Positions 29,660-63,508 of a DNA stretch of 64,000 nt are shown here, piece by piece. Source of the stretch: Escherichia coli (GTDB taxonomy: Bacteria > Pseudomonadota > Gammaproteobacteria > Enterobacterales > Enterobacteriaceae); the NCBI RefSeq assembly GCF_044324875.1, contig NZ_CP172185.1. One strand, 5' to 3'. The translations under genes were made by a program, and so were the position numbers. Position 1 is the first letter of the stretch, and each line of letters begins with the position of its first letter. The notes below the pieces were generated by a model. It had not been told where the DNA came from. It saw only the letters and a list, made by a program, of their open reading frames with translations, and ran no database searches.

Positions 29660-31894
29660 ATGGTTGCGGTAAGAAGTGCACATATCAATAAGGCTGGTGA
29701 ATTTGATCCGGAAAAATGGATCGCAAGTCTGGGTATTACCAGCCAGAAGTCGTGTGAGTGCTTAGCCGAAACCTGGGCGTATTGTCTGCAACAGACGCAG
29801 GGGCATCCGGATGCCAGTCTGTTATTGTGGCGTGGTGTTGAGATGGTGGAGATCCTCTCGACATTAAGTATGGACATTGACACGCTGCGGGCGGCGCTGC
29901 TGTTCCCTCTGGCGGATGCCAACGTAGTCAGCGAAGATGTGCTGCGTGAGAGCGTCGGTAAGTCGGTCGTTAACCTTATTCACGGCGTGCGTGATATGGC
30001 GGCGATCCGCCAGCTGAAAGCGACGCATACCGATTCTGTTTCCTCCGAACAGGTCGATAACGTTCGCCGGATGTTATTGGCGATGGTCGATGATTTTCGC
30101 TGCGTGGTCATCAAACTGGCAGAGCGTATTGCTCATCTGCGCGAAGTAAAAGACGCGCCGGAAGATGAACGCGTACTGGCGGCAAAAGAGTGCACCAATA
30201 TCTACGCGCCGTTGGCGAACCGTCTTGGGATTGGACAACTGAAATGGGAGCTGGAAGATTACTGCTTCCGTTATCTCCACCCGACCGAATACAAACGCAT
30301 CGCAAAACTGCTGCATGAACGCCGTCTCGACCGCGAACACTATATCGAAGAGTTTGTCGGCCATCTGCGCGCTGAGATGAAAGCTGAAGGCGTTAAAGCT
30401 GAAGTGTATGGTCGTCCGAAACACATCTACAGCATCTGGCGCAAAATGCAGAAAAAGAACCTCGCCTTCGATGAGCTGTTTGATGTGCGTGCGGTACGTA
30501 TTGTCGCCGAGCGTTTACAGGATTGTTATGCCGCACTGGGGATAGTGCACACTCACTATCGCCACCTGCCGGATGAGTTTGACGATTACGTCGCTAACCC
30601 GAAACCAAACGGTTATCAGTCTATTCATACCGTGGTTCTGGGACCAGGTGGCAAAACCGTTGAGATCCAAATCCGCACTAAACAGATGCATGAAGATGCA
30701 GAGTTGGGTGTTGCTGCGCACTGGAAATATAAAGAGGGCGCGGCAGCTGGCGGCGCACGTTCGGGACATGAAGACCGGATTGCCTGGCTGCGTAAACTGA
30801 TTGCGTGGCAGGAAGAGATGGCTGATTCCGGCGAAATGCTCGACGAAGTACGCAGCCAGGTATTTGACGACCGGGTGTATGTCTTTACGCCGAAAGGTGA
30901 TGTCATTGATTTGCCTGCGGGATCAACACCGCTGGACTTCGCTTACCACATCCACAGTGATGTCGGACACCGCTGCATCGGGGCAAAAATTGGCGGGCGC
31001 ATTGTGCCGTTCACCTACCAGCTGCAGATGGGCGACCAGATTGAAATTATCACCCAGAAACAGCCGAACCCCAGCCGTGACTGGTTAAACCCAAACCTCG
31101 GTTACGTCACAACCAGCCGTGGGCGTTCGAAAATTCACGCCTGGTTCCGTAAACAGGACCGTGACAAAAACGTTCTGGCTGGGCGGCAAATCCTTGACGA
31201 CGAGCTGGAACATCTGGGGATCAGCCTGAAAGAAGCAGAAAAACATCTGCTGCCGCGTTACAACTTCAATGATGTCGACGAGTTGCTGGCGGCGATTGGT
31301 GGCGGGGATATCCGTCTCAATCAGATGGTGAACTTCCTGCAATCGCAATTTAATAAGCCGAGTGCCGAAGAGCAGGACGCCGCCGCGCTGAAGCAACTTC
31401 AGCAAAAAAGCTACACGCCGCAAAACCGCAGTAAAGATAACGGTCGTGTGGTGGTTGAAGGTGTCGGTAACCTGATGCACCACATCGCGCGCTGCTGCCA
31501 GCCGATTCCTGGAGATGAGATTGTCGGCTTCATTACCCAGGGACGCGGTATTTCAGTACACCGCGCCGATTGCGAACAACTGGCGGAACTGCGCTCCCAT
31601 GCGCCAGAACGCATTGTTGACGCGGTATGGGGTGAGAGCTACTCCGCCGGATATTCGCTGGTGGTCCGCGTGGTGGCTAATGATCGTAGTGGGTTGTTAC
31701 GTGATATCACGACCATTCTTGCCAACGAGAAGGTGAACGTACTTGGCGTTGCCAGCCGTAGCGACACCAAACAGCAACTGGCGACCATCGACATGACCAT
31801 TGAGATTTACAACCTGCAAGTGCTGGGGCGCGTGCTGGGTAAACTCAACCAGGTGCCGGATGTTATCGACGCGCGTCGGTTGCACGGGAGTTAG
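29660..31894 (+). CDS. relA: GTP pyrophosphokinase RelA, (p)ppGpp synthetase I
   Basis: 744-aa ORF ending DVIDARRLHGS. Confidence 0.95.
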   Translation: MVAVRSAHINKAGEFDPEKWIASLGITSQKSCECLAETWAYCLQQTQGHPDASLLLWRGVEMVEILSTLSMDIDTLRAALLFPLADANVVSEDVLRESVGKSVVNLIHGVRDMAAIRQLKATHTDSVSSEQVDNVRRMLLAMVDDFRCVVIKLAERIAHLREVKDAPEDERVLAAKECTNIYAPLANRLGIGQLKWELEDYCFRYLHPTEYKRIAKLLHERRLDREHYIEEFVGHLRAEMKAEGVKAEVYGRPKHIYSIWRKMQKKNLAFDELFDVRAVRIVAERLQDCYAALGIVHTHYRHLPDEFDDYVANPKPNGYQSIHTVVLGPGGKTVEIQIRTKQMHEDAELGVAAHWKYKEGAAAGGARSGHEDRIAWLRKLIAWQEEMADSGEMLDEVRSQVFDDRVYVFTPKGDVIDLPAGSTPLDFAYHIHSDVGHRCIGAKIGGRIVPFTYQLQMGDQIEIITQKQPNPSRDWLNPNLGYVTTSRGRSKIHAWFRKQDRDKNVLAGRQILDDELEHLGISLKEAEKHLLPRYNFNDVDELLAAIGGGDIRLNQMVNFLQSQFNKPSAEEQDAAALKQLQQKSYTPQNRSKDNGRVVVEGVGNLMHHIARCCQPIPGDEIVGFITQGRGISVHRADCEQLAELRSHAPERIVDAVWGESYSAGYSLVVRVVANDRSGLLRDITTILANEKVNVLGVASRSDTKQQLATIDMTIEIYNLQVLGRVLGKLNQVPDVIDARRLHGS

Positions 31895-31989
31895 TCTTAC
31901 ATAGCTGGATATGGCGTCAGCCGTATCCAGCGATATCTTTTACTCGAAGGTATTACACCTGACAGACCCGCAATTTTCAGGACAATTCA

Positions 31990-32781
31990 ATGAATCAAAT
32001 CGACCGTTTGCTCACTATTATGCAGCGCCTGCGCGACCCGGAAAACGGCTGCCCGTGGGATAAAGAGCAGACATTTGCCACCATTGCGCCTTACACCCTT
32101 GAAGAAACCTACGAAGTGCTGGACGCCATCGCCCGTGAAGATTTTGACGATCTTCGCGGTGAACTGGGCGATCTGCTATTCCAGGTGGTGTTTTACGCGC
32201 AAATGGCTCAGGAAGAAGGGCGCTTTGACTTTAATGATATTTGCGCTGCTATTAGCGATAAATTAGAGCGTCGCCATCCGCATGTTTTTGCTGACAGTTC
32301 TGCCGAAAACAGTAGTGAAGTGCTTACCCGTTGGGAGCAAATCAAAACCGAAGAGCGCGCGCAGAAAGCGCAGCATTCAGCGCTGGACGATATTCCTCGT
32401 AGTTTACCGGCTTTAATGCGTGCGCAAAAAATCCAGAAACGTTGCGCCAACGTTGGTTTCGACTGGACGACGCTTGGTCCGGTAGTCGATAAAGTCTACG
32501 AAGAGATCGACGAGGTGATGTACGAGGCGCGGCAGGCTGTTATCGACCAGGCTAAACTGGAGGAGGAAATGGGTGACCTGCTGTTTGCCACGGTCAACAT
32601 GGCACGCCATTTAGGGACAAAAGCAGAGATTGCACTACAAAAAGCCAATGAAAAATTCGAGCGCCGTTTTCGCGAAGTGGAGCGTATTGTTGCCGCGCGT
32701 GGACTGGAAATGACAGGTGTTGACCTCGAAACAATGGAAGAAGTCTGGCAACAGGTAAAACGGCAGGAAATTGATCTCTAA
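31990..32781 (+). CDS. mazG: nucleoside triphosphate pyrophosphohydrolase MazG
   Basis: 263-aa ORF beginning MNQIDRLLTIMQRLRDPENGCPWDKEQTF. Confidence 0.95.
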   Translation: MNQIDRLLTIMQRLRDPENGCPWDKEQTFATIAPYTLEETYEVLDAIAREDFDDLRGELGDLLFQVVFYAQMAQEEGRFDFNDICAAISDKLERRHPHVFADSSAENSSEVLTRWEQIKTEERAQKAQHSALDDIPRSLPALMRAQKIQKRCANVGFDWTTLGPVVDKVYEEIDEVMYEARQAVIDQAKLEEEMGDLLFATVNMARHLGTKAEIALQKANEKFERRFREVERIVAARGLEMTGVDLETMEEVWQQVKRQEIDL

Positions 32782-36091: not shown

Positions 36092-36985
36092 TTACCAGCG
36101 ACCGGACGCGCCGCCACCGCCAGAAGAACCGCCCCCGCCGCTAAATCCGCCGCCACTTGAGCCGCCACCGGAAGAGGATGAAGAAGAACCTTTTCTTGAA
36201 GCTCTTTCTTTACTGAGTTTTTTGTATTTGGCGCGTAGCTTTTTATTAACGATAAGCCAAAAAATAACCAGTGGTACGATAGCAAAAGGCGTGAGCATAC
36301 CGCAGGCAACGATTAAATTCGTCCATGGTCCTGGCTCGGCAACATAGAGGAATACCATCCCATAAATTCCGCCAGTCAGTGCTATCCAGGGTAAATTCGA
36401 CGGATCGGTAAAAACAATAAAATATGAAAGTACCGCCAGCAATATAATTACAGCAAGCGATAATGGAATAGGGGGATTGATACTGTAATAATCCCCCCTG
36501 TCTTCCGGTAATTCACCATTCAACAGAAGCGCTCCGATATTTTCGCTTGCCAGTGTTAACCCACCCATCAAGTCATCACTTTTGAAGGCTGGGATTAATA
36601 TATTACGGATAATCTTCGCTGCTTGCAGATCGGTAACCACCCCTTCCAGCCCGTAGCCCACTTCTATACGGACAGCATGATCTTCCCAGGCAACCAGCAG
36701 TAAAATACCATCGTTTCGCTGCTTATCTCCCAGTTTCCAGCTATCAAAAACGCGTGTTGCATATTGTTCAATGGTATCGTCTCCGGTGGATGGCACTATT
36801 AATACGGCGACCTGGGCCCGTGTTTTTTGTGTGATATCCTGCAGCTGTTGTGTCAGTGATTGTTGTTCAGACGTGCTTAACGTACCAGTAATATCGGTCA
36901 CCTGTTGGCGCAGCTCCGGCACAGCAATTTGCTGGGCAAGCCCAGGAAGGCACCATAAAGTAAGTAGAAAAAAGATTAAGCGCAT
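36092..36985 (-). CDS. ygcG: TPM-domain membrane protein (YgcG-like), paralog C
   Basis: 297-aa ORF: signal peptide, TPM/DUF477-like domain, hydrophobic segments, Gly/Ser-rich tail ending GRW; symbol assigned by position next to eno only. Confidence 0.7.
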   Translation of the reverse strand: MRLIFFLLTLWCLPGLAQQIAVPELRQQVTDITGTLSTSEQQSLTQQLQDITQKTRAQVAVLIVPSTGDDTIEQYATRVFDSWKLGDKQRNDGILLLVAWEDHAVRIEVGYGLEGVVTDLQAAKIIRNILIPAFKSDDLMGGLTLASENIGALLLNGELPEDRGDYYSINPPIPLSLAVIILLAVLSYFIVFTDPSNLPWIALTGGIYGMVFLYVAEPGPWTNLIVACGMLTPFAIVPLVIFWLIVNKKLRAKYKKLSKERASRKGSSSSSSGGGSSGGGFSGGGGSSGGGGASGRW

Positions 36986-36990
36986 AATGA

Positions 36991-38139
36991 TTACCAGCGT
37001 CCGGATGAACCGCCGCCTCCTGAAGAACCACCACCACCGCGGAAAGAATTTCTCGACGAAGAGCGAGAATGAGCATTACGATTCCCCGTTTTCCTGTTGC
37101 TTTTTTCTCCTGACCCCAGTTTAAGATTGCCAGTAAATTTGGCCACAATGATCAGCAGAACTATGCCAGCAATGGTTATTGGGCCGATAAAATGATCAAT
37201 TAGCCCAATAATTGTTGAGATGAATGCAATATCTTTATTACTGGCGAACACCAGGCACCATCCCACAATAATTATCAGCATCACGACAAACAATGAATTT
37301 CGTCCTGATTCACGAACCTGCGGAGTCTTCTTTTGTTTTTTCACTTTAGTGTTTTTATTTTTGGGGGCCAGCATCATAGGAAATGCGCGGCACATATTAA
37401 AAACTACCGCGAGACGCTGCCAGCAGGTTGTTGCTAACAATAAACTAAAACAAACGACCGATACCCGCCGAATGATGACATCGTCCTGAAAGGAGAAAAA
37501 CCAGACCATAGGGGTAATCATCGATATCATCCATATGCCACGCCCTGGGCGGCTGGCAAATCGCCAGAGGACAACGATGGCAACGATCATCAGCAGTGTC
37601 CAGGCAAGACAAGGCAGCGAACGTTGCGGATTAGCAAACAGATGATTGGCTAAAGCATCCAAAGGGCTAAGGTTCGCTTTGATATGGGTAAACTGTGCGA
37701 TGCTTTCAATTCCGCCCGTTAATCCAGCAAAGAGATTGTTTTTTTCGAATTCTGGCTGCATATGGTAACGAACAATTTGCGCAGCTTGTTCCGGCGGCAA
37801 CATCTGTTCCAGTCCATGTCCAATCTTCATTGACGCCAGCCCTTCCGGCCATACGACGAGAATTAAGATACCTTCGCCATATCGCTTCTCTCCAACGGGT
37901 TTCCAGTGATATACCCCGTATCTCTGCGAGGCTGCAAGTTTAATGTTTTTGCCCCCTGTGGTCGGCGTGACCAACACGGCCACCTGGAAGTGGTTTTGCT
38001 GCACGAGAGTCTGTAATTGTTGAGTTAAAGCAGTTTGTTCTTCTGTCGTTAATGTCCCGGTTAAGTCAGTTACTGAAGGCAATTGTTCAGCGAATACCTG
38101 AAAACCGCATAGCATCAGAAGTAAGAGAAAAATACGCAT
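36991..38139 (-). CDS. TPM-domain membrane protein, divergent paralog B
   Basis: 382-aa ORF: signal peptide, TPM-like N-domain, several hydrophobic segments, Lys-rich linker, Gly/Ser tail ending GRW; 5 bp upstream of paralog C. Confidence 0.7.
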   Translation of the reverse strand: MRIFLLLLMLCGFQVFAEQLPSVTDLTGTLTTEEQTALTQQLQTLVQQNHFQVAVLVTPTTGGKNIKLAASQRYGVYHWKPVGEKRYGEGILILVVWPEGLASMKIGHGLEQMLPPEQAAQIVRYHMQPEFEKNNLFAGLTGGIESIAQFTHIKANLSPLDALANHLFANPQRSLPCLAWTLLMIVAIVVLWRFASRPGRGIWMISMITPMVWFFSFQDDVIIRRVSVVCFSLLLATTCWQRLAVVFNMCRAFPMMLAPKNKNTKVKKQKKTPQVRESGRNSLFVVMLIIIVGWCLVFASNKDIAFISTIIGLIDHFIGPITIAGIVLLIIVAKFTGNLKLGSGEKSNRKTGNRNAHSRSSSRNSFRGGGGSSGGGGSSGRW

Positions 38140-38153
38140 ATCAATTCCTTTTG

Positions 38154-39047
38154 TTACCAGCGCCCGGAAGCGCCACCGCCACCAGATGAACCGCCACCAC
38201 CGCTGAAATTGTCATTGTTGAATGAAGAGGATGACGATGATGAATAGTGGGAGGAAGAATTGCTTCTTGTATGGCGTGATGGCTGGTTGGCATCACGCAT
38301 CGAATCCCGAACCTTTTTGCCGAAGGGGGTAAAAGCGATGGCGACAGCCAGGAACGGTGTGGCGAAGCAGAGTAATGTTGCGAGTACTCCCCAGCTTCCG
38401 CTGAAGCCTGCTATAGGTAAAACAAAGGCCAGTACAATAGCTGCGAAGCAAATTACTCCCAGCGTTTTGATATATCCTCTGGCAGAAATAAACGTCAGTA
38501 CTATCGCCCAGACTAACAAAGCCCACCAACCGCTAAAAGGCAAAGGGTGATCGGTCGGTGTTATCGTTGCTAAATTATTCCCCGTCAGACGACTTTCAAT
38601 ATCGCTGATTCCCTTTTGCAAACCACCAGCCAGGTCCCCTTTTTTAAATGCCGGAATAATACTGTTGCGAATAATTTTCCCGGACTGTGCATCCGTAATA
38701 ATACCTTCCAGTCCGTAACCGATTTCAATACGCACGGTATGATCCTGCCAGGCGACTAACAGTAGAACGCCATCATCGTGGTCTTTATCACCCGGTTTCC
38801 AGCTATCGAATACCCGCGTTGCGTACTGCTCGATGGTTTCATCGCCTGTTGTTTCAACCACTAACACGACCAACTGTGCGTTGTTTTTTTGCGTCAGGGC
38901 TTTAATCTGGTTGGTCAGGGTGTTTACTTCACTGTTTGTCAATGTGCCGGTTAAGTCATTCACATACCTGGGTGATTCAGGTACTGGAATTTGTGTGGCA
39001 AACACAGATGAACAGAAGAAAGCCATAAGGAAGATAAAATTTCGCAT
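38154..39047 (-). CDS. TPM-domain membrane protein, paralog A
   Basis: Close paralog of 36092-36985; ORF runs to 39077, but the start at 39047 (MRNFIFLMAFFCSSVFA signal peptide, GGAAG RBS) avoids overlapping lemA. Confidence 0.7.
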   Translation of the reverse strand: MRNFIFLMAFFCSSVFATQIPVPESPRYVNDLTGTLTNSEVNTLTNQIKALTQKNNAQLVVLVVETTGDETIEQYATRVFDSWKPGDKDHDDGVLLLVAWQDHTVRIEIGYGLEGIITDAQSGKIIRNSIIPAFKKGDLAGGLQKGISDIESRLTGNNLATITPTDHPLPFSGWWALLVWAIVLTFISARGYIKTLGVICFAAIVLAFVLPIAGFSGSWGVLATLLCFATPFLAVAIAFTPFGKKVRDSMRDANQPSRHTRSNSSSHYSSSSSSSFNNDNFSGGGGSSGGGGASGRW

Positions 39048-39060
39048 ATAACTTCCCCGC

Positions 39061-39663
39061 TTAATGCGCATTAGCATTCTGGCTAAAATCTATTATTGGT
39101 GCTTTACTCACAGCTGCGACGTCATCCGGCAAATAATTTTTCTTCGGTGTGTAATCCATGACCTTTGCGGTTAATACAGCGGGGAATTTGCGGATAGTGA
39201 CATTATATTGTTCAATGGCTTTAATATATCTTCCTCGCGCAACGGCAATTCTATTTTCACTTCCTTCGAGCTGTACCATTAAATTTTGATAGAGTTCCTG
39301 AGCTTTTAAATCAGGGTAACGTTCACTAATTATCGTTAACTGACCGAGAGTGCGAGACACCTGCGCCTGGGCTTGTTGCCAGGCTTGTAATTTTTGCGCA
39401 TCTCCCGGAGCTTGCTGAAGATCGCTACTGGCGCGATTAGCCTGGCTACGTGCCAATGTTACGGCTTCCAGTACCTCTTGTTCATGGCTGGAATAACCTT
39501 TAATACTGGCGACAAGATTAGGAATAAGATCGGCGCGACGTTGATATTGATTCAATACCTCAGACCAGGAGGCGTTAACCTGCTCATCATAGGTTTGAAT
39601 ATCGTTATATCCACAGCCTGATAAATTGGCAATAAATATAATTACGATGAATATCCTGAGCAT
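39061..39663 (-). CDS. lemA: LemA-family lipoprotein
   Basis: 200-aa ORF with lipoprotein signal (LSGC lipobox) and LemA-like helical body; first gene of a four-gene minus-strand operon. Confidence 0.75.
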   Translation of the reverse strand: MLRIFIVIIFIANLSGCGYNDIQTYDEQVNASWSEVLNQYQRRADLIPNLVASIKGYSSHEQEVLEAVTLARSQANRASSDLQQAPGDAQKLQAWQQAQAQVSRTLGQLTIISERYPDLKAQELYQNLMVQLEGSENRIAVARGRYIKAIEQYNVTIRKFPAVLTAKVMDYTPKKNYLPDDVAAVSKAPIIDFSQNANAH

Positions 39664-40845: not shown

Positions 40846-41118
40846 GAGTTCCCCGCGCCAGCGGGGATAAACCGCTTCATCTGTCGGGCTAACTGGACAA
40901 AGAAACGAGTTCCCCGCGCCAGCGGGGATAAACCGTCGGTTTGACATCAAAGAAGCCATCAATCAGGGAGTTCCCCGCGCCAGCGGGGATAAACCGGTCT
41001 GGCCATAGGAACAAAGAAATTTGTCTTTGAGTTCCCCACGTCAGCGGGGATAAACCGGACACAGAGCGCCGCTATAGCGCCTATGCCAAGAGTTCCCCGC
41101 GCCAGCGGGGATAAACCA
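40846..41118 (+). CRISPR. type I-E CRISPR array (CRISPR2.1 position), 5 repeats and 4 spacers
   Basis: 29-bp repeats GAGTTCCCCGCGCCAGCGGGGATAAACCG at 40846, 40907, 40968, 41029 (variant CCCCACGTCAG) and 41090 (terminal, ends A); 32-bp spacers at 40875-40906, 40936-40967, 40997-41028, 41058-41089. Confidence 0.95.
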
Positions 41119-41571
41119 CCATATAACCCGTTATCTCTTTCTCAAGTTTTTATATTAGCAGTACTTGTAATAAGCAACATATCCACGTAACACCTCATGT
41201 TCAAAATAGTTCTCCATGCCAGAGAAGTTCACAATTATCGATACAAAAAATTAAATTTAATCAAAGTGTTATTTGTATGATTCTTAAATCGTTAAGAAAT
41301 TTTAATATATTATTTTTTTAATATTAATTAATGCCTGTTAATTTTTTCTTTAGAATAACAGTGTATTTTTTAAGCTTATTATTCATTGATTAAGTAATAA
41401 ATCTGGAAATTTGTCTTTGTTTTGAGGCTAATGAGTGATTTTACATAATCGCCTCTATACGCTGTTGATGAATAGTTCTTATGAATAAAGATATCCAGTT
41501 CATACTTTAAGTGAAAATTGATAAAGTGCGATTCGTATTGTCTTTTATTCTAAAGACATCGAGTGTAGTTA

Positions 41572-41709
41572 ATATTCCTTGTAAAAACAGGGATAAACCG
41601 AACTAGTTAAAGTTTTTATTATGTTCCCTGCATCAGCGGGGATAAACCGGACTTGTTATCATTTTTTAAGTTGTCGAACTTATGTTCCCCGCGTCAGCGG
41701 GGATAACCA
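41572..41709 (+). CRISPR. degenerate CRISPR remnant (CRISPR2.2-3-like)
   Basis: Three decayed repeat-like units ending GGGGATAAACCG (41572-41600, 41621-41649, 41682-41709, the last with a 1-bp deletion); intervening segments of 20 and 32 bp; AT-rich leader-like region upstream. Confidence 0.6.
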
Positions 41710-41755
41710 TTCAGGTATGTTCAGGCCGGGCAGTTTCCCGCCCGGTCTTCCTCAC

Positions 41756-47259: not shown

Positions 47260-48597
47260 ATGAACACTTCACCGGTGCGAATGGATGATTTACCGCTTAA
47301 CCGTTTTCACTGTCGAATTGCTGCGCTCACTTTCGGCGCACACCTGACCGACGGTTATGTTCTAGGCGTCATTGGTTACGCCATTATTCAGCTTACGCCC
47401 GCCATGCAACTGACGCCGTTTATGGCGGGTATGATCGGCGGCTCGGCGCTCCTTGGTTTGTTTCTTGGCAGCCTGGTTCTTGGGTGGATCTCCGACCATA
47501 TTGGTCGGCAAAAAATCTTCACCTTCAGCTTTTTGCTGATTACGCTCGCTTCGTTCTTGCAATTTTTTGCCACCACGCCAGAGCATCTTATTGGATTGCG
47601 CATTTTGATCGGCATTGGTCTGGGAGGCGATTACTCAGTCGGTCACACCTTGCTGGCTGAATTTTCCCCGCGCCGCCATCGCGGTATTTTGCTGGGCGCA
47701 TTCAGTGTGGTGTGGACCGTAGGCTATGTGCTGGCAAGTATTGCCGGACATCACTTTATTACCGAAAGCCCGGAGGCCTGGCGCTGGCTGCTGGCATCAG
47801 CGGCGTTACCAGCCTTGCTGATTACGCTGCTACGTTGGGGCACGCCGGAATCGCCACGCTGGCTACTGCGCCAGGGGCGTTTTGCTGAAGCTCACGCTAT
47901 CGTGCATCGCTACTTTGGTCCCCATGTTTTACTGGGCGATGAAGTGGCAACGGCGACCCATAAACACATCAAAACATTGTTCTCTTCGCGCTACTGGCGG
48001 CGCACAGCGTTTAACAGCGTCTTCTTTGTCTGCCTCGTAATCCCATGGTTTGTGATTTATACCTGGCTGCCAACTATCGCCCAAACTATTGGTCTGGAAG
48101 ATGCGCTGACAGCCAGCCTGATGCTTAATGCGTTGTTAATTGTGGGCGCGCTGCTGGGATTAGTTCTGACGCACCTGCTGGCACATCGCAAATTTTTGCT
48201 GGGAAGTTTTTTGCTGCTGGCGGCAACGCTGGTCGTGATGGCCTGTTTGCCTTCCGGCAGTTCATTAACGCTGCTGCTTTTTGTTCTCTTCAGCACCACC
48301 ATTTCGGCAGTCAGTAATCTGGTGGGCATTTTGCCTGCGGAAAGTTTTCCTACTGACATTCGCTCGCTGGGCGTCGGTTTTGCCACCGCCATGAGTCGGT
48401 TGGGCGCGGCAGTAAGTACGGGCCTGCTGCCGTGGGTGCTGGCGCAGTGGGGAATGCAAGTCACCTTATTGCTCCTGGCGGCAGTGTTGTTGGTTGGTTT
48501 TGTCGTGACCTGGCTATGGGCACCAGAAACCAAAGCACTCCCGCTGGTGGCGGCGGGAAATGTAGGAGGTGCGAATGAACATTCTGTTAGCGTTTAA
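47260..48597 (+). CDS. ygcS: MFS sugar transporter YgcS
   Basis: ORF from 47188; start at MNTSPVRMDDLPLNRF (47260) preferred; 12-TM MFS. Confidence 0.8.
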   Translation: MNTSPVRMDDLPLNRFHCRIAALTFGAHLTDGYVLGVIGYAIIQLTPAMQLTPFMAGMIGGSALLGLFLGSLVLGWISDHIGRQKIFTFSFLLITLASFLQFFATTPEHLIGLRILIGIGLGGDYSVGHTLLAEFSPRRHRGILLGAFSVVWTVGYVLASIAGHHFITESPEAWRWLLASAALPALLITLLRWGTPESPRWLLRQGRFAEAHAIVHRYFGPHVLLGDEVATATHKHIKTLFSSRYWRRTAFNSVFFVCLVIPWFVIYTWLPTIAQTIGLEDALTASLMLNALLIVGALLGLVLTHLLAHRKFLLGSFLLLAATLVVMACLPSGSSLTLLLFVLFSTTISAVSNLVGILPAESFPTDIRSLGVGFATAMSRLGAAVSTGLLPWVLAQWGMQVTLLLLAAVLLVGFVVTWLWAPETKALPLVAAGNVGGANEHSVSV

Positions 48598-49354
48598 AGC
48601 CGAACCGGATGTCGGAATGCTGGCGGAAAAAGAGTGGCAGGCGGCGGCTCAGGGTAATAGCGGACCGGATGTTTCGCTTCTGCGAAGTTTACTCGGTGCT
48701 GATGAACAGGCTGCCGCCGCGCTGCTGTTGGCGCAGAGAAAAAACGGTACGTCGATGTCTTTAACCGCGTTGAGCATGGGGGATGAACGGGCGTTGCACT
48801 GGCTGCGCTATCTCATGGCTCTTGGGTTTGAGGAAGCTGTATTGCTGGAGACGGTGGCAGATCTGCGCTTTGCGCCGGAATTTGTCGCTCGCCATATTGC
48901 CGAATGGCAGCGTCAGAATCCGCTGGATCTGATAATTACCGGCTGCCAAAGCAGCGAAGGGCAGAATGGGCAAACGCCATTTTTGCTGGCGGAAATGCTG
49001 GGCTGGCCCTGCTTCACCCAGGTGGAGCGTTTTACTCTCGACGCGCCGTTTATCACCCTTGAACAGCGTACTGAAAACGGGCTGCGCTGTTGCCGGGTTC
49101 GCTTGCCTGCGGTGATTGCCGTGCGTCAGTGCGGTGAAGTGGCCTTGCCAGTACCGGGAATGCGTCAGCGAATGGCGGCGGGGAAAGCAGCAATTATCCG
49201 TAAAACTGTTGCTGCCGAATTGCCAGCGATGCTGTGTCTGCAACTGGCAAGAGCAGAGCAACAACGCGGAGCGACGCTGATTGATGGGCAAACGGTAGCA
49301 GAAAAAGCGCAAAAGCTATGGCAGGACTATTTACGCCAAAGGATGCAGCCATGA
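48575..49354 (+). CDS. ygcR: electron-transfer flavoprotein beta-subunit-like YgcR (FixA-like)
   Basis: ETF-beta-like ORF; overlaps the ygcS 3' end by 23 bp. Confidence 0.8.
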   Translation: MNILLAFKAEPDVGMLAEKEWQAAAQGNSGPDVSLLRSLLGADEQAAAALLLAQRKNGTSMSLTALSMGDERALHWLRYLMALGFEEAVLLETVADLRFAPEFVARHIAEWQRQNPLDLIITGCQSSEGQNGQTPFLLAEMLGWPCFTQVERFTLDAPFITLEQRTENGLRCCRVRLPAVIAVRQCGEVALPVPGMRQRMAAGKAAIIRKTVAAELPAMLCLQLARAEQQRGATLIDGQTVAEKAQKLWQDYLRQRMQP

Positions 49355-50211
49355 ATATCGCAATTGTGACAATAAATCAGGAGAATGCCGCAATAGCGAG
49401 CTGGCAGGCGGCGCAGGATTTCAGCGGTTGTACCCTGGCGCACTGGAAGATTGAACCTCAGCCCGCTGTGGCGGAACAGGTGCTGGATGCGCTGGTGGAA
49501 CAGTGGCAGCGAACGCCTGCGGACGTTGTTCTCTTTCCGCCGGGAACGTTTGGCGATGAACTGTCGACCCGGCTGGCCTGGCGTTTACATGGTGCAAGCA
49601 TCTGCCAGGTGACTTCGTTAGATATTCCAACCGTAAGCGTGCGCAAATCCCACTGGGGAAATGCGCTAACGGCGACGCTGCAAACAGAAAAACGCCCGCT
49701 ATGCCTTTCCCTGGCGCGTCAGGCGGGAGCAGCGAAAAACGCCACGTTGCCCTCTGGTATGCAGCAACTGAACATTGTCCCAGGTGCGCTTCCCGACTGG
49801 CTGGTTAGCATAGAGAATCTGAAAAATGTTAGCCGCGACCCATTAGCTGAAGCCAGACGGGTGCTGGTGGTGGGGCAGGGCGGAGAGGCAGATAACCAGG
49901 AAATCGCTATGCTGGCAGAAAAGCTGGGAGCCGAAGTGGGCTACAGTCGGGCACGAGTGATGAACGGTGGCGTTGATGCCGAAAAAGTGATTGGTATTTC
50001 TGGACATCTGCTGGCACCTGAGGTGTGTATTGTTGTTGGCGCTTCCGGCGCAGCAGCGTTAATGGCGGGCGTACGCAATAGCAAGTTTGTGGTGGCGATT
50101 AATCATGACGCCAGCGCGGCGGTATTTTCACAGGCAGATGTTGGCGTGGTTGATGACTGGAAAGCGGTGCTGGAGGCTCTGGTGACAAACATTCACGCAG
50201 ATTGCCAATAA
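49351..50211 (+). CDS. ygcQ: electron-transfer flavoprotein alpha-subunit-like YgcQ (FixB-like)
   Basis: 286-aa ORF starting MNIAIVTINQ; ATGA start/stop overlap with ygcR. Confidence 0.8.
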   Translation: MNIAIVTINQENAAIASWQAAQDFSGCTLAHWKIEPQPAVAEQVLDALVEQWQRTPADVVLFPPGTFGDELSTRLAWRLHGASICQVTSLDIPTVSVRKSHWGNALTATLQTEKRPLCLSLARQAGAAKNATLPSGMQQLNIVPGALPDWLVSIENLKNVSRDPLAEARRVLVVGQGGEADNQEIAMLAEKLGAEVGYSRARVMNGGVDAEKVIGISGHLLAPEVCIVVGASGAAALMAGVRNSKFVVAINHDASAAVFSQADVGVVDDWKAVLEALVTNIHADCQ

Positions 50212-50357: not shown

Positions 50358-50933
50358 TCAAAGCAATTTTTTCGCTAACGTCCAGACCCCGGTATTCGTG
50401 GTGGAAAGCGCCACAACACCCGCGTTAATCGCATTACGCGCATCTTCTTCATCGCACACCAGCCCGCCGGCAATCAGCGGTTGGCGGATTTTCTCCGTCA
50501 CCCAGCCTAGCACTTTAGGCATACAGCCTGGCAGGATCTCAATACAATCCGGATTCGATTGCGCAACTTGCTTATCAATGTTGTGAAACGAAATCGAATC
50601 AACAATAAACAGGCGATGAATACAGAAAAAACCTTCCGCTCTTGCCGCTTTTAGCATCGATGCTTTCGTGCTGATAATGCCGTCCGCCTCGGTCACCAGT
50701 TTCAGAAACTGAATCACCACTTCTTTGTTCGATGCGCCTTCCAGCAAATCAACATGAATAAAGGCATATTTTCCGGCGTTTTTAATCTTTTTAACGATAT
50801 TACTGATGGTGCAGATATTGCCGTACAACACGGAAATAAACTGGCATTCAGAGTCGATTGCCAGTTGCAGGCTGGCATTATCTTTAACGGCAGCAATCAC
50901 CGGATTCTGGCGGAGCAGGTGTAAGAGGGGCAT
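50358..50933 (-). CDS. ygcP: GlpP-like glycerol-3-phosphate-responsive antiterminator family protein YgcP
   Basis: 191-aa ORF; synteny. Confidence 0.75.
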   Translation of the reverse strand: MPLLHLLRQNPVIAAVKDNASLQLAIDSECQFISVLYGNICTISNIVKKIKNAGKYAFIHVDLLEGASNKEVVIQFLKLVTEADGIISTKASMLKAARAEGFFCIHRLFIVDSISFHNIDKQVAQSNPDCIEILPGCMPKVLGWVTEKIRQPLIAGGLVCDEEDARNAINAGVVALSTTNTGVWTLAKKLL

Positions 50934-50949
50934 AAATTATCCTTATTAT

Positions 50950-51210
50950 TTATCCAAAGCGGTAGGTGATGCCGAATCCGGAAGGCGGATAGTGCCACTG
51001 TTGTAGCGTTTTTTCATCGCACAGCAAACGGCAGGTGCCGCACTCCAGACAATTACGATAATCAACGTGCAAATCACCCTCCGGTGTGAGCGAAAAAAGA
51101 CCAGCCGGACAAGCGTTAATCAACTGTTGTGCCGTCTGGCGCTCAACGGAGTCTGCCGGAACAATATGTGGCGCATCAGCAGCGCGCCAGAGATTACGGG
51201 CTACAGACAT
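50950..51210 (-). CDS. ygcO: ferredoxin-like protein YgcO (FixX-like)
   Basis: 86-aa form starting MSVARNLW with Cys cluster CLECGTCRLLC; ORF extends to 51246. Confidence 0.8.
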   Translation of the reverse strand: MSVARNLWRAADAPHIVPADSVERQTAQQLINACPAGLFSLTPEGDLHVDYRNCLECGTCRLLCDEKTLQQWHYPPSGFGITYRFG

Positions 51211-52472
51211 CGAATACTCCTGACAACATCGCCCGCCAGATGCCACAGGCCATGACGACGTAAATGACGCCAGAATAACTGGCGCAGCGGTGGAACAGGT
51301 TTATCACCCTGATCCCATAAATCACGGGAAATATCCTGCATTAACGCAGGCCACGCCCGATACCAGCCAGGGCGTTGCAAAAGCGCCGGAACATGCTGAT
51401 AACGCTGTAAAACATCCCACAGCAGGCTGCGCTCTACGTTGTGATGATAAAGCGGAAACAGATTTTGCGGCTCGCGGTGCTGGCAGGCGCTTATTAGCGT
51501 TTGTGCCGCCGCCTGCGCGCCAGTTAGCGCCATATCCATGCCGCGCACGGAAATTCCGGTATTGACGCAACTGCGCAACGCATCGCCCACCAGCAGTCAG
51601 CCGTTACCGGCGTATTGCATCGGCATACTGTGTAAGCCACCTTCTGGCACCAGATGCGCACCATACTCCAGTGATTCCGTGTTTTTGATAAGCGGGCGCA
51701 CTGCCGGATGCGTTTTAAAGCGAGCCAGCAGCTCGCTTGCCGGAACACGACTTTGCGTAAGGGAAGAGAGCGGGCAAACAATCCCTAACGAGAGCGTTTG
51801 TTGATTAGTATAAAGAAATGCGCCGCCGGGTAAGTCATCACAGATCCCGCCGCTGAACAGCAACGCTGCGCCTTCGTTATTCTCCAGATGAAAACGTTCT
51901 TCAATAGCGGATGTTTCCAGCGACAGCACTTCTTTGATCCCCAACGCCATCGCTTCGCCAGCAGGACGAGTCACTAACCCGTGACGTTCAGCCAGGACGC
52001 TGTTGGCACCTTCTGCCAGCACCACATAACGGGCGCGGAGAATATCGTCACCACAAATGACACCACACACCCTGCCGTTTTCTTCATACAGCGCATCCAC
52101 CGTCGCACCGGGGATGCATTCGACACCTTCTTTTTCGGCTTCGGCAACCAGCCACGGATCGAACCGTGCACGTAATACACTCCAGGATTCACCGCCGGGC
52201 TGTAAGCTGGAAAACGTCGTTGCGCCATCCGGCGTTAGCAGAGAAAGGCTTTCGTGAGTGATGCGTCGTTCAAGAGGCGCGGTCAGATGAAATTGCGGGA
52301 GGAGTTCCGCGAGCGCATGGGTGTATAAACGCCCGCCGGAAAGATTTTTGCTGCCGGGGATTTCAGCGCGTTCCAGTAACAGAACGGACAAACCTGCCCG
52401 CGCGCAGCGTAAAGCACAAGCGGTACCTGCTATACCCGCACCAATAATAATAATGTCGCAGTTGTCTTCCAT
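51201..52472 (-). pseudogene. ygcN: FixC-like FAD-dependent oxidoreductase YgcN interrupted by an in-frame TGA
   Basis: N-part MEDNCDIIIIGAGIAGTACAL... ends at TGA (51597-51599); the same frame continues LLVGDALRS... to 51201; combined length 423 codons. Confidence 0.7.
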
Positions 52473-52549
52473 GTCATGCCCCAGATATCCAGAACACAAC
52501 ACCCTAACATGGCGTTACTTAAGGGAAATTGACCGCCGACACACTCTTA

Positions 52550-52915
52550 TCATTCGCCGCGATAGATACAGCCTGCAGTACAGGTTTCTTTTACCATCAC
52601 CGCACTTAACAGCGGCACAACGGGTTTAACCTGATCCCAAATCCATTTTGCTAAAACTTCGCTGGTTGGGTTTTCCAGACCTGGAATATCATTGAGATAA
52701 TGGTGATCGAGGCGCTCATAAGTTGGCTTAAACGCCGCTTTCAGTTCAGCGAAATCGATAATCCAGCCCGTATGCGGATCGACCTCCCCGGTAATTTCCA
52801 GTCGCACCATAAAGGAATGCCCGTGCAGGCGACCACATTTATGCCCTTCCGGGACGTGTGGTAAGCGGTGAGCGGCTTCGAAGGTGAAATCTTTAAATAA
52901 CGTGGTGGACATCAT
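52550..52915 (-). CDS. queD: 6-carboxy-5,6,7,8-tetrahydropterin synthase QueD
   Basis: 121-aa form [35 protein letters not shown]; ORF extends upstream to 52999. Confidence 0.9.
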
Positions 52916-57968: not shown

Positions 57969-58319
57969 CCACCACGCGGGGGTAAAACCCCGCGTATTGA
58001 ATTGTGATGGTTTGGTCTCCTGCACCCTTTTTTAATTTATATTGTTTATGTGAATATTATGCCTATGTTTATTATTCATATATATTACGGATGAAAATTA
58101 TTTGATTATTCATAATGTGCAAAATGGCATCTGAATCGATCGCAGTTTGGCATTCGAATCGATCATGATTTGGCATCCATCTCCGATCACAGTTTGGCAT
58201 CACAATCGATCACGATTTGGCATGCTTCCGATCATTGATTGGCATCCTGCCAGTCACTCCGGGAATTAACTCTTTTCACCACAGTCTCCATTGCCGTGTT
58301 TAAACCAGTGGAGACGTCA

Positions 58320-59885
58320 ATGTCCAGAAAGAGAAAATCCAGGAGCACTATGGAAACCTGTTTTAAGATCCTTCAGCTCAAGTTCGACAAGAAGCTGACT
58401 AACCGTTGTATCGGACTGACGTTACACATCAGCGCCTCAACCGTTTTTGAGGTTCTTGCCCGCTTCAAAGCCTCTTCTCTGTCATGGCCATTACCTGCTG
58501 ATATATCCCATGACACGCTGGAGAAACTCATTTTTCCGCCCAAAGACACCTTTGCATCAGAGCTTGTAATGCCTGACATGTTGTACTTCGATACGGAAAT
58601 GAGAAAACCAGGTGTGACGCGGCAACTGTTGTGGATGGAATACAAGGCACAGGCGGGTAACAAAGCGATGGGATACTCGCACTTCTGCCGTTGCTACCGG
58701 GAGTGGAAAAAAACGCGACGTCTCTCCATGCGCCAGGAGCATCGTGCCGGCGAAAAGCTTTTTATCGACTTCTGTGGTCCTACGGTTCCTGTTATTAATC
58801 CGGACACCGGTGAGATACGCCGCGTGGCAATCTTCGTGGCCGTAATGGGGGCGTCCAACTATACCTACGTTGAAGCGTGCGAAGGTCAGGACATGATGTC
58901 ATGGTTAAATGCCCACAGCCGTTGCCTGACCTTCCTGGGCGGCGTACCGAAGCTGCTCATCCCCGATAACCTCAGAAGCGCAGTGAAAAAGGCCGATCGA
59001 TATGAGCCTGTCATCAACGACAGTTATCAGGCACTGGCTGAGCACTATGGCACGGTTATCATCCCGGCCCGACCACGCAAACCTAAAGATAAACCAAAAG
59101 CAGAAAACGGCGTCCTCATCGTTGAACGATGGCTTCTTGCCCGCATCCGTAATGAAACCTTCCACACGCTCAGGGCGCTGAATGCGCGCCTTAGGGAGTT
59201 ACTGACAGACATGAATAACCGGCCAATGAAGGGGTACGGCAATCAAACCCGTGCAGAACGCTTCCGCATACTGGATGCGCCAGCACTCTCTCCGCTGCCT
59301 CTGGCACCTTATGAATACACGGAATACAAAGCTGTGAAGGTTGGCCCTGACTACCACGTTGAATATGCCCGTCACTGGTACTCCGTTCCACACGAACTGG
59401 TCGGTCAGCGTCTGTCACTGAAGGCGGGGCAGTCGGTGGTACAGCTCTGGCACAAGGGGCAGTGTGTGGCGCAACATCCGCGCAGCACACATGAATATAA
59501 ACACACAACCAATCCGCTTCACATGCCAGAGCGCCACCGGCAGCACGGGACATGGACACCGGAACGCCTGATCGAGCAGGGAAAACGTACGGGCCCGTCC
59601 ACAGGCCGGGTGGTTGAATCCATGCTGAAGGCAAAACCCCATCCGGAACTGGCTTATCGTGCAGTTCTGGGGCTGCTGGCACTTCAGAAAAAATACGGCC
59701 CGGAACGGCTGGAAAAGGCCTGTTACGTTGCCCTGCACTATAACGCCCCTGACAGACGCTTTATCGACAATCTGCTGCGTCACCATCGGGAGAACCTGGA
59801 GCTTCCATTATCCCGCCAGGGCGAACAACATCCGGCATATGCTTCAGAGCATGAAAACCTGCGTGGTCCGGGCTACTACCACTGA
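58320..59885 (+). CDS. istA: IS21-family transposase IstA
   Basis: N-terminal HTH and DDE integrase core; start at MSRKRKSRS (58320) with GGAG RBS preferred over the ORF-track start 58239. Confidence 0.8.
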   Translation: MSRKRKSRSTMETCFKILQLKFDKKLTNRCIGLTLHISASTVFEVLARFKASSLSWPLPADISHDTLEKLIFPPKDTFASELVMPDMLYFDTEMRKPGVTRQLLWMEYKAQAGNKAMGYSHFCRCYREWKKTRRLSMRQEHRAGEKLFIDFCGPTVPVINPDTGEIRRVAIFVAVMGASNYTYVEACEGQDMMSWLNAHSRCLTFLGGVPKLLIPDNLRSAVKKADRYEPVINDSYQALAEHYGTVIIPARPRKPKDKPKAENGVLIVERWLLARIRNETFHTLRALNARLRELLTDMNNRPMKGYGNQTRAERFRILDAPALSPLPLAPYEYTEYKAVKVGPDYHVEYARHWYSVPHELVGQRLSLKAGQSVVQLWHKGQCVAQHPRSTHEYKHTTNPLHMPERHRQHGTWTPERLIEQGKRTGPSTGRVVESMLKAKPHPELAYRAVLGLLALQKKYGPERLEKACYVALHYNAPDRRFIDNLLRHHRENLELPLSRQGEQHPAYASEHENLRGPGYYH

Positions 59886-59901
59886 CAGAAGGAACAACAG
59901 T

Positions 59902-60657
59902 ATGAGTGATAACCTGTTAAACAAACTGACCCAACTGAAACTCCCGGCGATGGCCGGGAGCCTGATACGGCAGCGGGAAACGCCTCAGACCTACGACGAA
60001 CTGTCGTTCGAGGAAAGGCTGACGCTGCTGGTTGATGACGAGCTTCTGAGCAGGGAAAACAGCCGTGTGGCACGGTTGAGAAAAAATGCCGGCCTGAAAT
60101 ACCAGGCAACACCGGAAGGGCTGCGCTATCCGGCCTCAAGAGGTCTGCGGGCTGAACAGATGAGAGAACTGCTGAACGGCCACTACATAACCCACAGGAA
60201 AAACCTGCTGATAACCGGTCCGACAGGATGTGGCAAGAGCTGGATAGCCAATGCGCTGGGCGAACAGGCATGTCGACAGAAACACAGCGTCCGGTACTGT
60301 AGAACCGGGCGATTACTGGAACAACTGGCTCAGGGACGTGTTGATGGCAGCTGGCTGAAATATCTGAAACAGTTGCAAAAAATACAGGTTCTAATCCTGG
60401 ACGATCTGGGGCTGGAACAGTTAAGTAACGCCCAGTGTAATGACCTTCTGGAGCTCATAGAGGATCGTTACGGACAAAGCAGCACGATAGTGGTAAGCCA
60501 GTTCCCGGTAGATAAATGGCATGGTCTGATGGAGAACCCAACAACAGCAGATGCCATCCTGGACAGACTGGTACATAACTCACACCGAGTGGTCCTTCAG
60601 GGAGAGTCACTGAGGAAAAATCCCCCGGTAGTGGAAAGCAGCGAAAAAACGCGTTAA
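59902..60657 (+). CDS. istB: IS21-family ATP-binding helper IstB
   Basis: 251-aa form MSDNLLNKL... with Walker A GPTGCGKSW and Walker B LILDDLG; ORF-track start 59659 overlaps istA. Confidence 0.85.
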   Translation: MSDNLLNKLTQLKLPAMAGSLIRQRETPQTYDELSFEERLTLLVDDELLSRENSRVARLRKNAGLKYQATPEGLRYPASRGLRAEQMRELLNGHYITHRKNLLITGPTGCGKSWIANALGEQACRQKHSVRYCRTGRLLEQLAQGRVDGSWLKYLKQLQKIQVLILDDLGLEQLSNAQCNDLLELIEDRYGQSSTIVVSQFPVDKWHGLMENPTTADAILDRLVHNSHRVVLQGESLRKNPPVVESSEKTR

Positions 60658-60808
60658 AAAGCGGTAGAAAAAGTTAAGTTCCCGGTTGATCGAATGGATG
60701 CGAATCGCTGATCGGACTTCGATGCCAATCCGTGATCGAATAGAGCGGAATACGCACATAATGTAAATATTTTATTGAACGATATATATCACAGATAATT
60801 TTTAATAT

Positions 60809-63508
60809 ATGCGTAAATATCCTTTAAGTTTACTGAAGGATAAAAATATTGTGACTTTTTTTGATTTCTGGGGAAAAACCCGACGCGGCGAGAAAGACGG
60901 GGGCGACGACTATCACCTTCTTTGCTGGCATTCGCTGGATGTAGCCGCGATGGGCTATTTAATGGTTAAAAGCAATTGCTTCGGGCTGACTGACTATTTT
61001 CGTCAACTAGGTTTCGCTGATACGGAGCAGGCAGCACAATTTTTCGCCTGGCTATTGTGCTGGCACGATACTGGAAAATTTGCCCGCTCTTTTCAGCAAC
61101 TTTACCTGCACCCACAACTCAAGGTTCCGGAAGGCGCAAGAAAGAATTACGAAAAGATCTCTCATTCAACGCTGGGCTACTGGCTGTGGCATCATTATTT
61201 AAGTGAATACGAAGAATTGCTTCCTTCATCTTCACTCTCTCCGCGCAAACTTAAACGGGTGATGGAGATGTGGATGCCCATAACTACCGGGCATCATGGT
61301 CGCCCGCCTGACCGTATTGATGAACTGGATAATTTTCTGCCTGAAGACAAAGCTGCCGCGCGAGATTTTCTTCTTGAAATCAAACCACTGTTTCCGCTCA
61401 TAGAGATCCCCGCATTCTGGGATGATGATGAGGGCATTGAACTTATAAAACACCTTTCCTGGTATATCTCTGCAACCGTCGTGCTCGCAGACTGGACGGG
61501 TTCGTCAACGCGATTTTTTCCACGCGTCGCACACCCAATGGATATTAAAGGTTACTGGCAGAAAACTTTAGTTCAGGCTCAAAACGCCTTAACCGTCTTT
61601 CCTCTAAAAGCAAAAGTCGCGCCTTTCACCGGAATTAATACGCTGTTTCCTTTTATTGAGAATCCGACACCGTTACAGCAAAAGGTGCTGGATCTGGATA
61701 TCAGCCAGCCAGGGCCACAGTTATTTATTCTGGAAGATGTGACTGGCGCAGGTAAAACGGAAGCGGCGCTTATCCTGGCGCACAGGTTGATGGCTGCGGG
61801 TAAAGCGCAGGGTTTGTTTTTTGGCCTGCCAACAATGGCAACGGCCAATGCCATGTACGATCGACTGGTCAAAACCTGGCTTGCTTTCTATTCGCCAGAG
61901 TCCCGCCCCAGCCTGGTGCTGGCACACAGTGCCCGAACATTAATGGACCGCTTTAATGAATCACTCTGGTCCGGTGATTTAGTCGGGTCAGAAGAACCGG
62001 ATGAACAAACGTTCAGTCAGGGATGTGCGGCCTGGTTTGCCGACAGTAACAAGAAGGCGCTACTGGCTGAAATTGGCGTCGGCACGCTGGATCAGGCGAT
62101 GATGGCTGTGATGCCGTTCAAACATAATAATCTGCGGCTTCTGGGACTGAGTAACAAAATCCTGCTGGCTGATGAGATCCATGCCTGTGACGCTTACATG
62201 TCATGCATTCTTGAAGGGCTGATCGAGCGGCAGGCGCGTGGCGGAAACAGCGTCATTTTGCTTTCTGCCACGTTATCTCAACAGCAGTGCGACAAACTCG
62301 TTGCTGCCTTTGCGCGTGGTACAGAGGGCCAGCAAGAAGCTCCGTTCCTGGAAAAGGATGATTACCCCTGGCTGACGCACGTTACGAAATCCGATGTGCA
62401 TTCACACCGGGTAGCGACGCGCAAAGACGTTGAGCGTAGCGTGAGCGTGGGTTGGCTTCATAGCGAACAAGAATGTATTGCGCGTATCGAATCGGCAGTA
62501 AGTCAGGGGAAATGCATCGCCTGGATCCGGAATTCTGTCGATGACGCTATTAAGGTTTATCGTCAGTTGCTTGCCCGCGGCGTCATTCCTGCTTCCAGCC
62601 TTTCTCTGTTTCATAGCCGCTTTGCTTTTAGCGATCGCCAGCGAATTGAAACGGAAACGCTGGCACGCTTCGGTAAAGAAGATAGCTCACAGCGTGCCGG
62701 AAAAGTCCTCATTTGTACTCAGGTCTTAGAGTCGAGCGTTGATTGCGATATGGACGAAATGATTTCCGACCTGGCCCCTGTTGATTTGCTGATCCAGCGA
62801 GCGGGGCGATTACAGCGGCATATCCGCGATATTAATGGTCAGTTAAAGCGTGACGGAAAAGACGAGCGTTCCCCTCCTGAATTGCTGATTCTGGCCCCCG
62901 TCTGGGACGACGCTCCAGGTGACGAATGGTTCGGCAGTGCCATGCGTAACAGTGCATATGTCTATCCCGATCATGGACGAATCTGGCTGACGCAGCGTGT
63001 ACTGCGTGAGCAAGGCGCTATTCAAATGCCACACGCAGCCCGCCTTCTTATTGAATCAGTCTACGGTGAGGACGTGGTAATGCCGGAAGGATTTGCCCGC
63101 AGCGAGCAGGAGCAAGTGGGCAAATATTACTGCGATCGCGCAATGGCTAAAAAGTTTGTGCTGAACTTCAGGCCTGGCTATGCCGCCAATATCAACGATT
63201 ACCTTCCGGAAAAGCTGTCGACACGTCTGGCGGAGGAGTCTGTTTCCCTGTGGCTGGCTACCTGTATTGCCAGTGTGGTGAAGCCTTATGCCAACGGTGC
63301 TCACGCATGGGAAATGAGCGTTGTCAGAGTGCGTCGAAGCTGGTGGAAAAAACATCGGGATGAGTTTTCTTTACTGGAAGGGGAAGCGTTCAGGCAGTGG
63401 TGCATTGAACAGCGGAAAGATCCGGAGATGGCAAACGTGATTTTAGTTACCGATGACGAAAGTTGCGGGTATTCGGCTATGGAAGGATTGACTGGCAAGG
63501 TTGGTTGA
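60809..63508 (+). CDS. cas3: CRISPR-associated helicase/nuclease Cas3 (type I-E, non-K-12 sequence variant)
   Basis: 899-aa ORF: N-terminal HD domain (HSLDVAAMGYL, CWHDTGK), DEAD/DEAH helicase (Walker A GAGKTEA, LADEIHA); clearly diverged from the K-12 Cas3 sequence I recall. Confidence 0.85.
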   Translation: MRKYPLSLLKDKNIVTFFDFWGKTRRGEKDGGDDYHLLCWHSLDVAAMGYLMVKSNCFGLTDYFRQLGFADTEQAAQFFAWLLCWHDTGKFARSFQQLYLHPQLKVPEGARKNYEKISHSTLGYWLWHHYLSEYEELLPSSSLSPRKLKRVMEMWMPITTGHHGRPPDRIDELDNFLPEDKAAARDFLLEIKPLFPLIEIPAFWDDDEGIELIKHLSWYISATVVLADWTGSSTRFFPRVAHPMDIKGYWQKTLVQAQNALTVFPLKAKVAPFTGINTLFPFIENPTPLQQKVLDLDISQPGPQLFILEDVTGAGKTEAALILAHRLMAAGKAQGLFFGLPTMATANAMYDRLVKTWLAFYSPESRPSLVLAHSARTLMDRFNESLWSGDLVGSEEPDEQTFSQGCAAWFADSNKKALLAEIGVGTLDQAMMAVMPFKHNNLRLLGLSNKILLADEIHACDAYMSCILEGLIERQARGGNSVILLSATLSQQQCDKLVAAFARGTEGQQEAPFLEKDDYPWLTHVTKSDVHSHRVATRKDVERSVSVGWLHSEQECIARIESAVSQGKCIAWIRNSVDDAIKVYRQLLARGVIPASSLSLFHSRFAFSDRQRIETETLARFGKEDSSQRAGKVLICTQVLESSVDCDMDEMISDLAPVDLLIQRAGRLQRHIRDINGQLKRDGKDERSPPELLILAPVWDDAPGDEWFGSAMRNSAYVYPDHGRIWLTQRVLREQGAIQMPHAARLLIESVYGEDVVMPEGFARSEQEQVGKYYCDRAMAKKFVLNFRPGYAANINDYLPEKLSTRLAEESVSLWLATCIASVVKPYANGAHAWEMSVVRVRRSWWKKHRDEFSLLEGEAFRQWCIEQRKDPEMANVILVTDDESCGYSAMEGLTGKVG

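Follow-up and report, generated by a model that had tools for sequence, protein, structure and literature searches.

Does the in-frame TGA that interrupts ygcN in this Escherichia coli chromosome mark a pseudogene, a site of partial readthrough or a sequencing error? These three options were set side by side in an earlier note on the same DNA, and they are weighed here together with further readings that the locus brings to mind. The window, that is, the whole stretch of DNA that was analysed (64,000 nucleotides), runs in the order gcvA–fuc–sda–gud–barA–relA–pyrG–eno–queE–ygc cluster–cysJIH–cas3. The gene order is largely that of K-12 BW25113, and protein identities to that strain are mostly 98-100%.

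Translation of the minus strand gives a frame that begins at an ATG at 52472 and ends at a natural stop at 51203..51201. It comprises 423 codons plus the stop and reads ...SMPMQYAGNG-TGA-LLVGDALRS... around its single internal stop, both halves of the gene sharing one frame across the 423 codons. K-12 YgcN is likewise 423 aa long, and the window gene aligns with it over its full length at 97.4% identity with one internal stop (tblastn); RefSeq labels the orthologues ygcN, FAD-dependent oxidoreductase. The earlier note had described an in-frame TGA followed directly by C in a FixC-type ygcN whose combined length equals that of the intact gene. All of this proved correct, the TGA lying exactly where it had been placed (Table 1), and the identity of the gene being borne out both by the K-12 alignment and by a match to FixC of T. 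maritima.

Table 1. Positions of ygcN, its internal stop and other features of the window.
Feature	Position	Strand	Description
ygcN	51201..52472	minus	423-codon FixC/ETF-quinone-oxidoreductase-type FAD flavoprotein gene; pseudogene allele, broken at codon 292
Premature stop TGA, codon 292	51597..51599	minus	plus strand reads 'tca'; from TGG (Trp)
Base after the stop	51596..51596	minus	C (UGA-C tetranucleotide), from the sequence
N-terminal ORF, 291 codons	51600..52472	minus	predicted truncated product
Remnant, codons 293-423 and natural stop	51201..51596	minus	untranslated; GD motif and C-terminal domain
Readthrough peptide spanning YgcN residue 292			…MQYAGNGWLLVGDALR
Chi site	51587..51594	minus	ygcN coding strand, codons 293-296
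ygcO	50950..51210	minus	FixX-like ferredoxin, 86 aa; intact; 89.5% identity to K-12
ygcP	50358..50933	minus	glycerol-3-phosphate-responsive antiterminator family; intact; 100% identity to K-12; last of the ygcNOP unit
ygcR and ygcQ	48575..50211	plus	ETF beta/FixA and ETF alpha/FixB; both intact
Site of absent mazE-mazF	31894..31990		relA ends at 31894, mazG starts at 31990
Four genes in place of K-12 yqcG/ygcG	36092..39663	minus	
Type I-E CRISPR array	40846..41121		between queE and ygcE
Two degenerate CRISPR repeats	41621..41710		
IS21-family element	58119..60756		2,638 bp, istA/istB
Direct duplication flanking the IS21-family element	58111..58118, 60757..60764		8 bp, CATAATGT
cas3	60809..63508		899 aa

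A true G misread as A during sequencing or assembly would also produce such a stop: errors of this kind typically show up as one changed base in a lone assembly, and the allele is without a match in any complete RefSeq E. coli genome. Nevertheless, an error is scarcely credible. The exact 291-aa truncated product recurs on 118 contigs (121 collection blocks), most of them assembled from independent runs, and in NCBI record SRB26725.1. Three contigs from different runs (L003, L004 and L006, from SRR31121768, SRR31140334 and SRR18073228) were independently assembled, carry the TGA and, over 7-17 kb, agree with the window at 99.99-100%. The remaining genes of the window are clean, all 48 other K-12 orthologues being full length and without internal stops, which indicates that the stop is isolated and does not reflect general decay or poor sequence. 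The sequencing-error option of the earlier note is thus effectively refuted by the recurrence of the same truncated product on many independent contigs. General genome decay of the kind expected on a Shigella-like background was also considered and rejected, given the 48 intact orthologues and the presence of just one IS in the window.

One public 5.28-Mb NCTC assembly (LR134238.1, L005) shares the C-terminal fragment and has TGG at codon 292. Its cas3, cysH, cysI, ygcN, ygcW and yqcE genes are all fragmented by indels, with 26 gap openings in 17 kb relative to the window. This fragmentation looks like assembly indel error rather than biology, and for that reason the assembly was not counted as evidence.

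The origin of the stop can be read from intact alleles. Alignment with intact orthologues, the check that the earlier note had named, gave TGG at codon 292 in K-12 BW25113 and in E. coli 7/2, the strain with the nearest ygcN allele among complete genomes, the change being a G>A transition at nt 876 of ygcN (window base 51597). Six independent assemblies (L011-L015 and L017) carry a ygcN identical to that of the window across 1,272 nt except at nt 876, where they have G instead of A, and a seventh assembly with the intact allele (L016) shows one extra synonymous difference. The proposal that the stop had replaced a Trp codon by a TGG to TGA change is therefore confirmed by K-12, by 7/2 and by six otherwise identical copies of the gene, and only one G>A transition separates the ygcN of the window from an intact allele still in circulation. 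An exact-sequence lookup found the Trp292-restored YgcN (P0031) on 36 contigs in 74 collection blocks and under several NCBI accessions, all of them E. coli.

The TGA allele is genuine, clonal and rare. A 59-mer bearing the TGA had no exact match in the 4,948 complete RefSeq E. coli genomes that contain the segment, all of which differ from it by at least one base. The window alleles of YgcR and YgcQ occur on 176 and 187 contigs respectively, numbers close to those of the TGA and TGG carriers taken together, which fits an origin of the mutation within a single lineage. Beyond the stop, the remnant of ygcN has no further difference from the intact allele, as would follow from an event so recent that decay cannot yet be seen. 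Among the 5,426 complete RefSeq E. coli genomes, the nearest does not exceed 99.5% identity over positions 1-25000 of the window or about 98% over 40000-64000, indicating that the source clone is not represented among the complete genomes of the species.

The reading frames on either side of the stop could, alternatively, be expressed as two polypeptides that reassemble into an active enzyme, with translation restarting at a GTG at 51590 or at a later ATG and the coupling to ygcO being kept. Termination-reinitiation is common in bacteria, and candidate in-frame restarts do exist in the remnant: the GTG stands two codons past the stop (9 nt downstream), while the ATG opens a 112-aa downstream product (P0016) that gene callers predict on the same contigs as the 291-aa product. 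However, the few bases that precede the GTG show nothing resembling a Shine-Dalgarno sequence, and the break would fall inside the strand-GD motif that contacts FAD. Moreover, in 5,121 complete genomes ygcN matched as one contiguous stretch over 80% or more of its length, and every match listed is annotated as one ygcN gene. The earlier note had allowed for a natural protein end at this point with a separately initiated gene downstream; no such two-gene arrangement was found among the 5,121 near-full-length orthologues. A functional split gene is accordingly rated as highly improbable.

What the truncation would remove can be judged from solved relatives of the protein. The best of these is T. 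maritima FixC (7KOE_C; E=5.5e-57, residues 4-418), followed by ETF-QO (2GMH; E=7e-18), and the Pfam matches in intact YgcN are to DAO, to FAD_binding families (FAD_binding_3) and to ETFQO_UQ-bd. Intact YgcN resembles the FixC of T. maritima FixABCX (7KOE chain C) from end to end, with an N-terminal GxGxxG, a ubiquinone-binding-like region and a GD motif; FixC and YdiS are its E. coli paralogues. As in other modules of the FixC/ETF-QO type, ygcN adjoins genes for a FixX-like ferredoxin (ygcO) and for FixA/FixB-like ETF subunits (ygcR/ygcQ), the last two encoding the presumed electron-donor partners of YgcN.

In contrast with these relatives, the window allele encodes only residues 1-291. The sequence GNGWLLVGDA, with the stop at W, aligns with 'GDRVLVCGDAAM' in T. 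maritima FixC, which places the stop in the strand that runs up to the GD FAD-binding motif. The earlier description of a stop within a conserved FixC-type motif therefore stands as regards the GD motif and fails as regards the Trp, which is not invariant, being Val in T. maritima FixC. The 291-aa product keeps the Rossmann FAD-binding start (GAGIAG) and the ETF-QO ubiquinone-binding-like region and is without the GD motif. The 131 residues lost make up the C-terminal third, and all of them align to 7KOE_C. With the GD motif and this third missing, the enzyme would be expected to be inactive, and a loss of YgcN activity is inferred from the sequence. A literature search on ygcN and the ygc module returned essentially nothing relevant to function and no biochemical data on YgcN.

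Disruption of ygcN is not peculiar to this clone. In an unrelated lineage (L009/L010, ygcN at 6001..7272), which differs from the window at 58 of the 1,272 nt and is without adjacent cas genes, codon 292 is TAG. To judge from this divergence it is an independent nonsense mutation at the same codon, and it argues against any special role for UGA. A 385-aa YgcN product ending just before Trp386 was found on 146 contigs, frameshifted products of 311, 315 and 316 aa were also encountered, and E. albertii has fusion products of 364/373 aa that diverge right after Gly291 (variant proteins examined: P0036, P0003, P0004, P0007, P0002 and P0011). The tail of the E. albertii fusions, which we take to resemble the C-terminus of an FGGY sugar kinase, suggests that a deletion took out a large part of the ygc cluster. 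In 299 of the 5,426 complete genomes ygcN had no match whatever. The variety of these disruptions indicates that loss of the gene is tolerated.

A mutational hotspot at codon 292 was considered and rejected. Only 36 transitions, in 27 codons, can create a stop in ygcN; half are supplied by nine Trp codons, and Trp292 itself accounts for two of the 36. The second codon-292 allele surfaced because the protein cluster in which it was found groups products of similar length. Given so few routes to a stop and this ascertainment, the coincidence is not significant. A perfect Chi site (5'-GCTGGTGG-3') lies close by on the coding strand, with two bases between it and the stop; K-12 has the same site, which strain 7/2 has lost (CTGCTGCTG). 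Chi sites abound in E. coli and are not, to our knowledge, a cause of point mutations, and no link between this site and the ygcN mutation was established.

Since the ancestral codon was TGG, readthrough of the UGA by Trp-tRNA would indeed restore the original residue, as the earlier note had proposed; this is a general property of UGA rather than a feature of the locus. According to work reported by Poole et al. in 1995, UGA-C terminates translation only weakly in E. coli and is the weakest of the tetranucleotide signals, so that leakage could exceed the average. The C itself opens the ancestral CTG codon for Leu293 and is shared by every aligned allele, which means that it was inherited and not selected as a stop context.

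At UGA codons of E. coli, Trp-tRNA and RF2 compete, and the outcome sets the level of readthrough; with K-12 reporters it reaches about 2% at 37 C and 4% at 25 C, and in that strain it varies between single cells in a cAMP-driven manner (PMC10570021). The RF2 of K-12 is unusually weak (PMC10570021; PMC5373646), and a K-12 strain given the more active E. coli B form of the factor yielded no detectable readthrough product from nudL or pheL (PMC5373646). The UGA of ygcN is open to the same competition, and here misreading would restore the native residue; cases such as nudL and pheL, however, involve natural stops or reporters, whereas the ygcN UGA is a new mutation that is not conserved and shows no evidence of selection. 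The window does not extend to the RF2 gene of the source strain. Background readthrough by Trp-tRNA at the ygcN stop would be at most a few percent, and probably one percent or less.

A stronger version of this idea would have the UGA-C sustain a low, possibly condition-dependent supply of active YgcN (at low temperature or high cAMP) that is maintained by selection. The ancestral Trp at the stop, the reportedly weak context, the documented K-12 readthrough of 2-4%, the undamaged remnant and the intact partners ygcO/P/Q/R are all compatible with such a leaky pseudogene. However, the C is merely the base of an ancestral Leu codon, and an intact remnant is equally expected from recency alone. 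A stimulatory RNA structure was sought in the 63 nt from the UGA, whose folding energy of -17.2 kcal/mol is weaker than the -21.5 averaged by shuffled sequences (z=+1.5), and a permissive Rfam scan of 51100-52600 gave only a chance snoRNA match. Nor is the stop conserved in the manner of programmed readthrough, as none of the 4,948 complete genomes contains its 59-mer and the intact allele, identical in all else, lacks it. The UAG at the same codon in an unrelated lineage, the frameshifts, W386 stop and deletions elsewhere, and the failure to detect nudL and pheL readthrough products in K-12 with the E. coli B RF2 also weigh against it. No sign of selection for readthrough was found, and a functionally meaningful form of the partial readthrough entertained in the earlier note is unsupported; a selected leak is considered very unlikely. 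Less likely again is a down-tuned, phenotypically heterogeneous ygcN, in which a small, condition-dependent pool of wild-type YgcN would be formed and the repeated stops at Trp codons (W292 twice, W386) would reflect selection for reduced expression of the module.

An in-frame UGA in a redox enzyme also raises the thought of selenocysteine or some other programmed recoding, for which the probability is practically nil. TGG is the ancestral and near-universal codon, homologues carry Trp or Val and neither Cys nor Sec, and the parallel allele has TAG. A SECIS or other stimulatory structure was found neither by folding nor by the Rfam scan. With TGG as the ancestral codon and neither a downstream hairpin nor an RNA-family match, selenocysteine is ruled out.

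The stop may also be felt beyond ygcN. The start of ygcO and the natural end of ygcN share 10 nt (annotated overlap at 5263-5272), so that ygcO is probably translationally coupled to ygcN and exposed to polarity from the stop. The approximately 390 nt left untranslated would probably lower ygcO expression too, through polarity and the lost coupling. With regard to sequence variation, YgcO and YgcR (48575..49351) are 89.5% and 95.4% identical to their K-12 counterparts, most flanking proteins being 98-100% identical, and the segment from ygcN to ygcR forms a noticeably more polymorphic block than its flanks.

Several other features of the window were recorded. The IS21-family element lies between a hok-like gene downstream of cysH and cas3, and RefSeq places the istB of near-identical copies in the ISSso4 family. 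In L004, a sister contig of the same clone, the site is empty, so that the element either inserted after the ygcN stop arose or varies within the clone. The mazEF toxin-antitoxin pair that K-12 has between relA and mazG is absent. The four genes found in place of K-12 yqcG/ygcG encode a 200-aa protein, presumably LemA-like, whose sole NCBIfam match is to MamQ and far below the curated cutoff, and three proteins of 297, 382 and 307 aa that are 31-44% identical to the TPM-domain protein YgcG. The CRISPR array is short, with five 29-nt repeats (GAGTTCCCCGCGCCAGCGGGGATAAACCG) at a spacing of 61 nt. The short-read contigs L004 and L006 of the clone end at 41201, about 80 nt beyond the last full repeat, and the array may be the cause of these breaks. 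The cas3 gene appears intact and its product is only 29% identical to that of K-12, from which it follows that the strain carries an alternative E. coli type I-E cas variant.

Taken together, the evidence favours a real, recent and clone-confined loss-of-function mutation, W292* (TGG>TGA), which makes ygcN a young pseudogene of a dispensable gene; we put the probability of this reading at about 0.9. It is the pseudogene option of the earlier note, and it is supported by the restriction to one clone, the single nucleotide that separates the allele from an intact one, the destruction of the GD motif and the repeated disruption of the gene in other lineages. A single G>A change turned the Trp292 codon TGG into TGA in one E. 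coli clone. Translation would then stop after 291 residues, giving a presumably inactive product that has lost the GD motif along with the C-terminal third. Background misreading of the UGA by Trp-tRNA may yield some wild-type protein, as incidental leakage that would be neither programmed nor selected. The mutation would persist because the ygcNOPQR electron-transfer module is dispensable and has been repeatedly lost in Escherichia.

The event is an ordinary gene-inactivating mutation. With other lineage-specific nonsense pseudogenes of E. coli it shares a stop made by one transition, a circulating intact allele, restriction to a clone and independent disruption elsewhere. The ygcN case is unusually well delimited, since exactly one of 1,272 nt differs and the surrounding 64 kb is without other decay. 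If readthrough were substantial, the locus would exemplify, in nature, a nonsense allele whose effect is softened by near-cognate decoding back to the native residue, and nothing found points in that direction. The correct annotation in this clone is a ygcN pseudogene (nonsense, W292*), neither two genes nor a recoding site. W292* also provides a clean, datable marker SNP for the clone. More broadly, the finding adds evidence that the uncharacterised FixABCX-like ygcNOPQR module is dispensable and has been lost repeatedly in Escherichia.
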